NCBI RefSeq assembly: GCF_006345805.1 | Contig: NW_021825545.1 | Coordinates: 1 to 14,390, forward strand | DNA from: Octopus sinensis | Taxonomy: Eukaryota | Length of the DNA: 14,390 nt | Reading direction: 5' to 3' | Part shown: one piece after another, positions 13,650 through 13,820 of the stretch | Numbering within the stretch: the first letter of the stretch is position 1 | How the letters are laid out: each line of letters begins with the position of its first letter | Made by a program: the position numbers and the translations under genes | Notes under the pieces: model-generated | Seen by the model: the letters and a program-made list of their open reading frames with translations, nothing else | Told to the model about the DNA's origin: nothing | Database searches by the model: none

Positions 13650-13820
13650 TTTATTTTTGGATATAACGGGGTTACTCAGATGTGCTTGTGTTATTCGCTT
13701 CCGCTGTTTTCCAGGGGCACGTGTGAGTATCTCACTTATATTCTCTCGTAAGCTTAACTGAAGACGAACGAACACTTATGGTGTTGATTCCGAAATTGAT
13801 TCAATATTAAGATAACGAAA
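13650..13820 (+). mobile_element. Diverged homologue of the 2367-2801 hammerhead element (outer limits uncertain)
   Basis: Shared blocks in order: TTTTGGATATA, GGGGT(T)ACT(T/C)AGAT(C/G)TGCT, TTTTCCA(T/G)GGG, GT(A/G)AGTAT(T/C)TCACTTATA, CTGAAGA, CTTATG, CCGAAATTG, CAATA, ATAACG. Confidence 0.75.
13753..13811 (+). ncRNA. Type I hammerhead ribozyme motif
   Basis: CUUAA-CUGAAGA-C-GAA-CG-AACAC-UUAUG-GUGUU-GA-UUC-C-GAAA-UUGA-U-UCAA-UA-UUAAG. Stem I is a perfect 5 bp, there is a C-C mismatch at the base of stem II, and predicted cleavage is after A13806. Confidence 0.8.

Follow-up and report, generated by a model that had tools for sequence, protein, structure and literature searches.

The window analysed here, a stretch of 14,390 nucleotides from Octopus sinensis (contig NW_021825545.1 of assembly GCF_006345805.1, forward strand), carries two type I hammerhead motifs, each within a copy of a short repeat. 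Both are real hammerhead folds and represent two branches of a short non-coding mobile repeat family, here called families A and B (Table 1). One window copy is a full unit plus 7 nt, the other is truncated, and homology between them reaches around 80-100 nt upstream of the cores. The window as a whole is rich in simple repeats, and other short dispersed repeats of SINE-like character lie between microsatellites at 3102-3205, 5042-5145, 9904-9995 and 14115-14244.

Table 1. Features of the two hammerhead-bearing repeat copies, in window coordinates
Feature	Position	Strand	Remarks
Family A repeat copy, 5'-truncated	2450..2811	+	Ends at the first fixed end; short TA run next
Inverted arm of the family A insertion	2357..2449	-	Tail of ~90 nt, second fixed end, (TA)n
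Family A type I hammerhead	2602..2672	+	Predicted cut after A2661
Family A tertiary positions	U1.7 at 2668; invariant internal-loop A at 2641; UUAU tetraloop at 2631-2634	+	
Target-site duplication, 10 bp, left copy	13536..13545	+	GTAAACGCAT; read from sequence
Family B repeat copy	13546..14040	+	Full 488-nt circularly permuted unit plus 7 nt
Target-site duplication, 10 bp, right copy	14041..14050	+	
GTRAGT motif	13723..13739	+	Upstream of the core; 464 exact matches in the genome, 0 in the control
Family B type I hammerhead	13747..13817	+	Sequence, parse of 122 copies, pair counts
Family B helix I	13753-13757/13807-13811; distal part 13747-13749/13815-13817	+	
Family B core	CUGAAGA 13758-13764; GAAA 13792-13795	+	Sequence
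Family B helix II	13765..13791	+	C·C mismatch, basal stem of 3 bp, 2x2 internal loop, 5-bp apical stem
Family B helix II loops	Internal loop 13769-70/13786-87; apical loop 13776-13780	+	A13787 invariant; apical loop variable
Family B helix III palindromic segment	13795..13805	+	No stable stand-alone hairpin; pairing with a second copy predicted to give a 10-bp duplex (-6.7 kcal/mol)
Family B predicted cut site	After A13806	+	AUA triplet
Family B AUAA	13812..13815	+	Positions 1.6-1.9
Family B U1.7	U13813	+	Predicted reverse-Hoogsteen partner of A13787; copy counts, with PMC2632901 and PMC11875169 as published parallels

The core positions C3-A9, G12-A15.1 and U16.1-H17 form invariant columns in 27 representative copies (see below) and in both window copies, and the three helices, with helix I open, are supported by covariation, the arrangement of a type I hammerhead. 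Rfam gave no hammerhead match in the window (E up to 1) or in two 161-nt stretches (E up to 10); this reflects a gap in the library for such an architecture and not a defining chemical feature. Folded alone as single sequences, the motifs score z values of -0.5 to -1.6 with a mispaired core, which is uninformative.

The carrier families were found by pattern searches of the 2.72-Gb genome, with matches listed for the first contigs. Exact matches to the motif number 2,179 genome-wide, being the sum of 1,283 and 896 for two disjoint patterns, against 0 for reversed controls. The two repeat families yielded 955 and 2,600 candidates at first look, 40 of each being scored, and the pattern matches revealed further branches, labelled C to H. 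Motifs on the same strand are spaced 465-495 nt apart in 17 of 18 intervals, and the corresponding units are non-coding with 32-34% GC. In tandem arrays these units join tail to head with no coding sequence between them, each consecutive unit having one type I hammerhead, as do non-LTR retrozymes. Branch D arrays hold up to 6 motifs in units that are 98.4-100% alike; at one locus (L186) three motifs on one strand stand head to head with six on the other, and both arms end in TA runs. The units are also highly self-paired, a further retrozyme trait, and fold far better than shuffled sequence, with z = -4.0 for the family B copy of the window and z of -3.5 to -4.7 for the circular folds of all four natural units.

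A first-pass annotation of the window had compared the stems at 2607-2672 with those at 13753-13817 and read their differences as selection on RNA structure. The stem sequences it quoted all lie where it placed them. Between the two copies, 8 of 18 stem pairs have changed on both sides, 3 on one side only, and 7 are identical. When the structure at 2607 is imposed on the copy at 13753, 19 of the 36 stem letters differ and 17 of the 18 pairs are kept; with 19 random substitutions spread over 36 stem letters, at least 17 pairs survived in 1 of 200,000 simulations. The comparison extends to 27 representatives picked by hand from 122 copies, across clusters and with undecayed copies favoured. In these related sequences, assessed by our own pair counts and slid controls rather than R-scape, double changes occur at all five pairs of proximal helix I, at three of four in basal helix II and at two of five in helix III (parts of which were fixed by the search patterns), and the covariation score is 0.436 against 0.035-0.130 for the slid controls. 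Pairs 2-5 of the apical stem are paired in 25-26 of the 27 by the anchor count in our script, and pair 1 in 20. At pair 2.3:1.3 a stepwise path (U-A, U·G, C-G) is visible within family B. A tree built from the flanks only, covering 93 of the 122 copies (2 were dropped for short flanks and 27 for non-homologous ones), shows repeated changes that preserve pairing, with few independent double events per pair because the representatives are related. The window-pair, representative and tree counts thus all support selection on RNA secondary structure, and this selection was exerted on the elements from which a mobile repeat family is copied and not at the two genomic sites.

Several details of the earlier description needed amending. 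The unpaired parts, taken to be invariant, differ between the copies both in the internal loop of helix II (AA/AA versus CG/GA) and on the 5' side of the helix I internal loop (UAUU versus UAAG). The GAA/UUC pairs of basal stem II at 13753 are present, but a first pair, C·C (13765·13791), had been left out; the UCCC of the copy at 2607 is likewise present, but its U is a minority change, most family copies reading CCCC. The CGU/ACG pairing suggested as a distal extension of helix I is found in 83-93% of the 122 copies; it is, however, nearly invariant and therefore without real covariation, and we regard it as plausible. The sequences of the 4-bp stem III are also there, but they leave loops of 2 and 1 nt, with forbidden folding energies, so that closure inside one molecule is impossible.

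The helix III palindrome is instead likely, on modelled energies, to work only in a dimer. Its segments have predicted energies of 0 to -1.3 kcal/mol as hairpins, none of them stable, and of -6.1 to -15.0 kcal/mol as self-duplexes in nine of the ten commonest segments, with the parse pattern favouring palindromes. The innermost pair, which requires two molecules or two tandem units, switches from G-C to A-U (10 versus 16 of the 27 representatives), a single event on the flank tree. The canonical motif of animals is described as having a 6-bp helix I, a 4-bp helix II and a palindromic helix III acting as a dimer, and cleavage by both window motifs is predicted to occur as pairs. Pair 10.1-11.1 is formed in 15 of the 27 representatives and mismatched in 12, being G-C in family A, C·C in the window copy of family B and A·C in the young arrays; mismatches are thus found in branches that are amplifying. 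Family D offers an alternative reading, with an extra base before a G-C pair. The natural exceptions reported at R10.1-Y11.1 in the published account consulted are U·U only.

What holds helices I and II together is a separate matter. The first-pass annotation had matched the UUAU of the apical loop with the AUAA of the 3' strand and suggested a pseudoknot between them. The complementarity is present in both window copies, but the pairing is not conserved across the wider family, and the contact is probably the canonical one between U1.7 and an A of loop 2 alone. Loop 2 would then be the 2x2 internal loop above a 4-bp basal helix II, with the apical hairpin as an extension, and its 3' A would pair reverse-Hoogsteen with U1.7. 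In the Schistosoma and sTRSV structures U1.7 is described as making a Hoogsteen pair with the last A of loop 2 (PMC11875169), and in the CChMVd(-) hammerhead the partner A sits in an internal loop 2 (PMC2632901). The octopus motifs have both elements, an unpaired U at 1.7 and a 3' A of loop 2 following a 4-bp helix II. Among the 122 copies U1.7 is conserved in 98%, A11.5 in 99% and A2.8 in 97%; A11.5, directly above the basal helix, differs in only 14 of the 1,283 genome matches, and no internal branch of the tree carries a change at 1.6-1.9, 2.8, 11.5 or 11.7. Genome matches lacking U at 1.7 number 73, against 16 in the control, and represent scattered decay or chance. On its 5' side, internal loop 1 of family A reads GUAU and resembles the G5U6A7C8 described for Schistosoma (PMC2632901). 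Two observations weigh against the canonical contact: an (A/G)U kept in the apical loop of most representatives, which it leaves unexplained, and, in family B, an A2.7 opposite U1.7 that could pair with and sequester it.

A 4-bp pseudoknot joining the apical UUAU and the AUAA is unlikely, despite some points in its favour. All four pairs are possible on paper in 19 of the 27 representatives and at least two in every one, 89.8% of cells pair, and A-U has become G·U in three; published precedents include such pseudoknots in ~40% of hammerheads (PMC3088659) and a helix I internal loop joined to loop II in HDV-like RNAs (PMC7936874). However, compensatory change is absent, none of the four pairs having changed on both sides among the 27 representatives, and the AUAA at 1.6-1.9 shows not one internal-branch change, not even A to G, against 30 at ten positions of proximal helix I. 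The apical loop varies from 3 to 9 nt; eight representatives cannot form four pairs, four have triloops, and in seven of the remaining 19 the loop is a tetraloop all of whose bases would need to pair. Pairing every base of a tetraloop meets a steric objection. UUAU is missing from 27 of the 122 copies, and 24 of these retain AUAA. Inspection by eye of the first 100 listed matches to the 1,283-match pattern, which allowed only RYRAC at 1.6-1.10, found 26 without UUAU (six of them UUGU) and AUAAC in all 100; similarly, none of ten copies with U1.7 changed to C has a matching change in the loop. The geometry is also unfavourable, with the loop 11 steps from the core and AUAA 6-9 steps; in the published case helix II has 6 bp and the pairs are rich in G-C. 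A reduced contact of 2 bp between loop II and the 3' strand could still be present. That both contacts act, the canonical U1.7·A pair being joined by a small second contact or a protein site provided by the apical (A/G)U, for instance within the dimer, is quite improbable: the loop ends in U in 24 of the 27 representatives and a purine precedes it in 26 in spite of the varying loop length, but UUAC, UUAG and CUG loops occur in copies or subfamilies with intact cores and the remainder is explicable by shared ancestry.

The family has two fixed ends, each followed by (TA)n, some 140 and 230 nt 3' of the predicted cut. Among the 122 copies with intact cores, the first TA run begins 130-149 nt from that cut in 43 and 210-249 nt from it in 39; it lies closer than 30 nt in 2 and elsewhere in 23, and none was found in 15. 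The family B copy of the window ends exactly at the second fixed end, with the first near 13948. In family B the sequence that follows the unit end is the unit start, a circular permutation, and the first 6 nt of the right target-site duplication match the next 6 nt of the unit, a microhomology. Around 30 nt before the core, GTRAGT is kept in 104 of the 122 copies, and in the window it is seen at 2579-2595 as well as in the family B copy. We take this motif to look like a 5' splice site, and it may be a relic of a Penelope-type intron; at its family B position a downstream partner could close a short hairpin. A short block of sequence before the first fixed end (13905-13948 and 2765-2811) is common to the two families and, judged from sequence, is a candidate recognition signal for a reverse transcriptase. 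One branch D arm (L186:1385-1430) ends ~40 nt past the first fixed end, not ~90 nt, much like the tail of the coding element described next.

Penelope-like elements are described as inserting in partial tandems, with one arm inverted and truncated, a tail on one end and a preference for microsatellites (10.1101/2021.04.23.441226), and the non-coding units show the same pattern: partial tandems, an inverted arm, a one-end tail and a microsatellite target. The genome also holds coding elements of this class. Of 5,029 GIY-YIG candidates 150 were scored, and 147 of those are GIY-YIG matches. One coding family has intact 781-aa frames with reverse transcriptase (RT) and GIY-YIG domains, and a Cys motif in the linker of the kind described for Neptune/Nematis (10.1101/2021.04.23.441226). 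Its ends are short in nine of 15 copies and bear a 35-40-nt tail in the other six, followed by TA runs, and two TA-flanked ends are thus seen in both the coding element and the non-coding unit. In the 50 GIY-YIG loci examined (30 + 20, from the 5,029 candidates) no coding element uses the unit for a terminal repeat; the unit occurs three times in these loci, each time as a separate insertion. We therefore infer the coding partner. Unit copies beside coding elements (L121, L139, L141-L143) were considered as leads to that partner and set aside as separate insertions, and the sequence upstream of a family C copy, another possible partner, is a different repeat.

These coding loci have features of their own. 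The 3' UTR of the main coding Penelope-like family contains a likely minimal hammerhead (L121:5352-5392, in G000:C1, and nine other loci), with a U3-A8 core variant and a palindromic helix III, ~70 nt before the element end. At L121:674-4374 a 479-aa ORF1 overlaps the 781-aa RT/GIY-YIG frame by ~80 nt, several copies looking intact, and the overlap suggests a frameshift. Other hammerhead-like motifs with different stems and palindromic helices III (GUAC, CAUAUG, CUCGAG) occur at L127, L129 and L133, one of them in the 3' UTR of a second coding family.

Taken together, the window contains two type I hammerhead folds with co-varying stems, from two branches that have diverged within a family of non-coding repeats found in tandem and inverted form. 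We consider it likely that the family consists of non-LTR retrozymes copied by Penelope-like enzymes, and that the active fold is held by the canonical contact of U1.7 with the A of loop 2 rather than by a pseudoknot. Counting against this explanation are the mismatch at 10.1-11.1, which could mean slow cleavage or none, and the predicted active monomer fold, which lies 3.4-4.1 kcal/mol above the predicted minimum. The mechanism would follow the model proposed in PMC4209133. Tandem RNA, arising from read-through or internal promotion, would cleave itself to unit length, two neighbouring hammerheads pairing through the palindromic helix III for cleavage, and the unit-length RNA would be ligated to a circle. 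The RT/GIY-YIG protein of a Penelope-like element would then nick TA-rich DNA and prime there, and the RT would start at one of two internal sites and run round the circle, giving partial, unit-plus and multi-unit inserts. Copying round a circle from internal sites would account for insert ends that lie at a distance from the cut, for unit-plus inserts and for multimers of near-identical units. The same marks would be expected from a multimeric template that had never been cleaved.

Among the RNA records listed, none holds the unit; contigs from presumed-RNA runs contain most of the B unit in two runs and most of the D unit in two of four. In one such contig the end of the unit runs into its start, but this joint is present in tandem DNA too, so that the contig is evidence neither way. 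In the runs X17 and X18 the family, at window positions 13784-13834, is found in contigs labelled as other organisms, and their summed depth on the 3' half of the hammerhead far exceeds that on the remainder of unit B; an abundance of sister branches in related species is suggested.

A more ambitious version of the retrozyme explanation is offered tentatively, at somewhat less than even odds. The motif would be a previously undescribed type I architecture that Rfam does not see, in which both tertiary loops are internal, helix III exists only in the dimer and 10.1-11.1 is maybe open; it would drive a large and still young retrozyme radiation; and the inserts would be a direct record of a Penelope-like enzyme reverse-transcribing circular RNA in rolling-circle fashion, with starts at two fixed internal sites, not the ribozyme cut. 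It is very unlikely that the units instead derive from an unsampled coding Penelope-like element, as its solo or truncated terminal repeats, or that the hammerhead has become a structural or recognition signal of weak catalytic activity, with no circular RNA stage in either case: the modest sampling of GIY-YIG candidates given above, the 10.1-11.1 mismatch in amplifying branches, ends that do not map to the cut site and the Xenopus retrozyme dimers, eight of nine of which are reported not to have cleaved when tested, would all suit such a view, but the tail-to-head units without coding sequence in arrays of up to 6 motifs, the lack of a contiguous Penelope-like coding match in 90 loci and the conservation of the catalytic core and tertiary positions across branches speak against it.

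The closest relatives of the family in the literature are the animal non-LTR retrozymes (Cervera & de la Peña 2020, PMC7229834; Li, Clavereau & Pollet 2026, 10.64898/2026.07.22.740005). As described there, these also are tandem units without coding sequence, each holding a single type I hammerhead, with GC below 45%, strong self-pairing and both monomers and multimers, and they live beside Penelope-like elements. The octopus units are longer than the 170-400-nt RNAs given in PMC7229834 and fall inside the 51-972-bp range of 10.64898/2026.07.22.740005. They differ from the retrozymes as described in their inverted arms, TA-run targeting, two fixed ends and tail, and are known here from genomic copies. 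With the canonical metazoan type I motif of the Schistosoma mansoni type, as set out in PMC4209133 and PMC2632901, they share the core CUGANGA/GAAA/UH, a 5-6-bp helix I followed by an internal loop starting at U1.7, a 4-bp basal helix II followed by a 3' A, and a short palindromic helix III. In contrast to that motif, loop 2 is here internal and topped by a 5-bp hairpin, which makes both loops internal, several branches have C·C or A·C at 10.1-11.1, and an Rfam match is absent. The CChMVd(-) hammerhead described in PMC2632901 likewise pairs the first U of loop 1 with the 3' A of an internal loop 2, but it belongs to a viroid, its loop 1 is apical and its internal loop 2 is of the 2:6 type, whereas here loop 1 is internal and loop 2 mostly 2x2. 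The hammerheads in the pLTRs of Penelope-like elements (PMC4209133; 10.1101/2021.04.23.441226) resemble ours in that helix III is palindromic, insertions occur as partial tandems and in inverted form, one end carries a tail and microsatellites are favoured. Those described are mostly minimal motifs adjoining an RT/GIY-YIG ORF, with tails of 30-40 bp, unlike the full-size motif here, which has no ORF and a tail mostly of ~90 nt. The literature covered on octopus or cephalopod hammerheads, retrozymes and metazoan type I internal loops contains no description of the family; the supplementary motif catalogues of PMC7229834 and PMC4209133 may hold a similar motif.

Hammerheads are common in animal repeats, and the pair in the window is for that reason ordinary in itself. 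The covariation noticed between its members was a correct catch in a known kind of element, and the pseudoknot proposed with it is probably wrong. The value of the family lies in its many branches, which amount to natural mutagenesis of a single fold and separate Watson-Crick stems from base-specific tertiary positions; they suggest that a type I motif makes the canonical contact from a loop 2 that is internal. In addition, Penelope-type insertion marks are common to the units and to a coding element within one genome. It has been proposed that Penelope-like enzymes mobilise animal retrozymes by way of RNA circles, and these shared marks make the proposal directly testable with the young, near-identical arrays.
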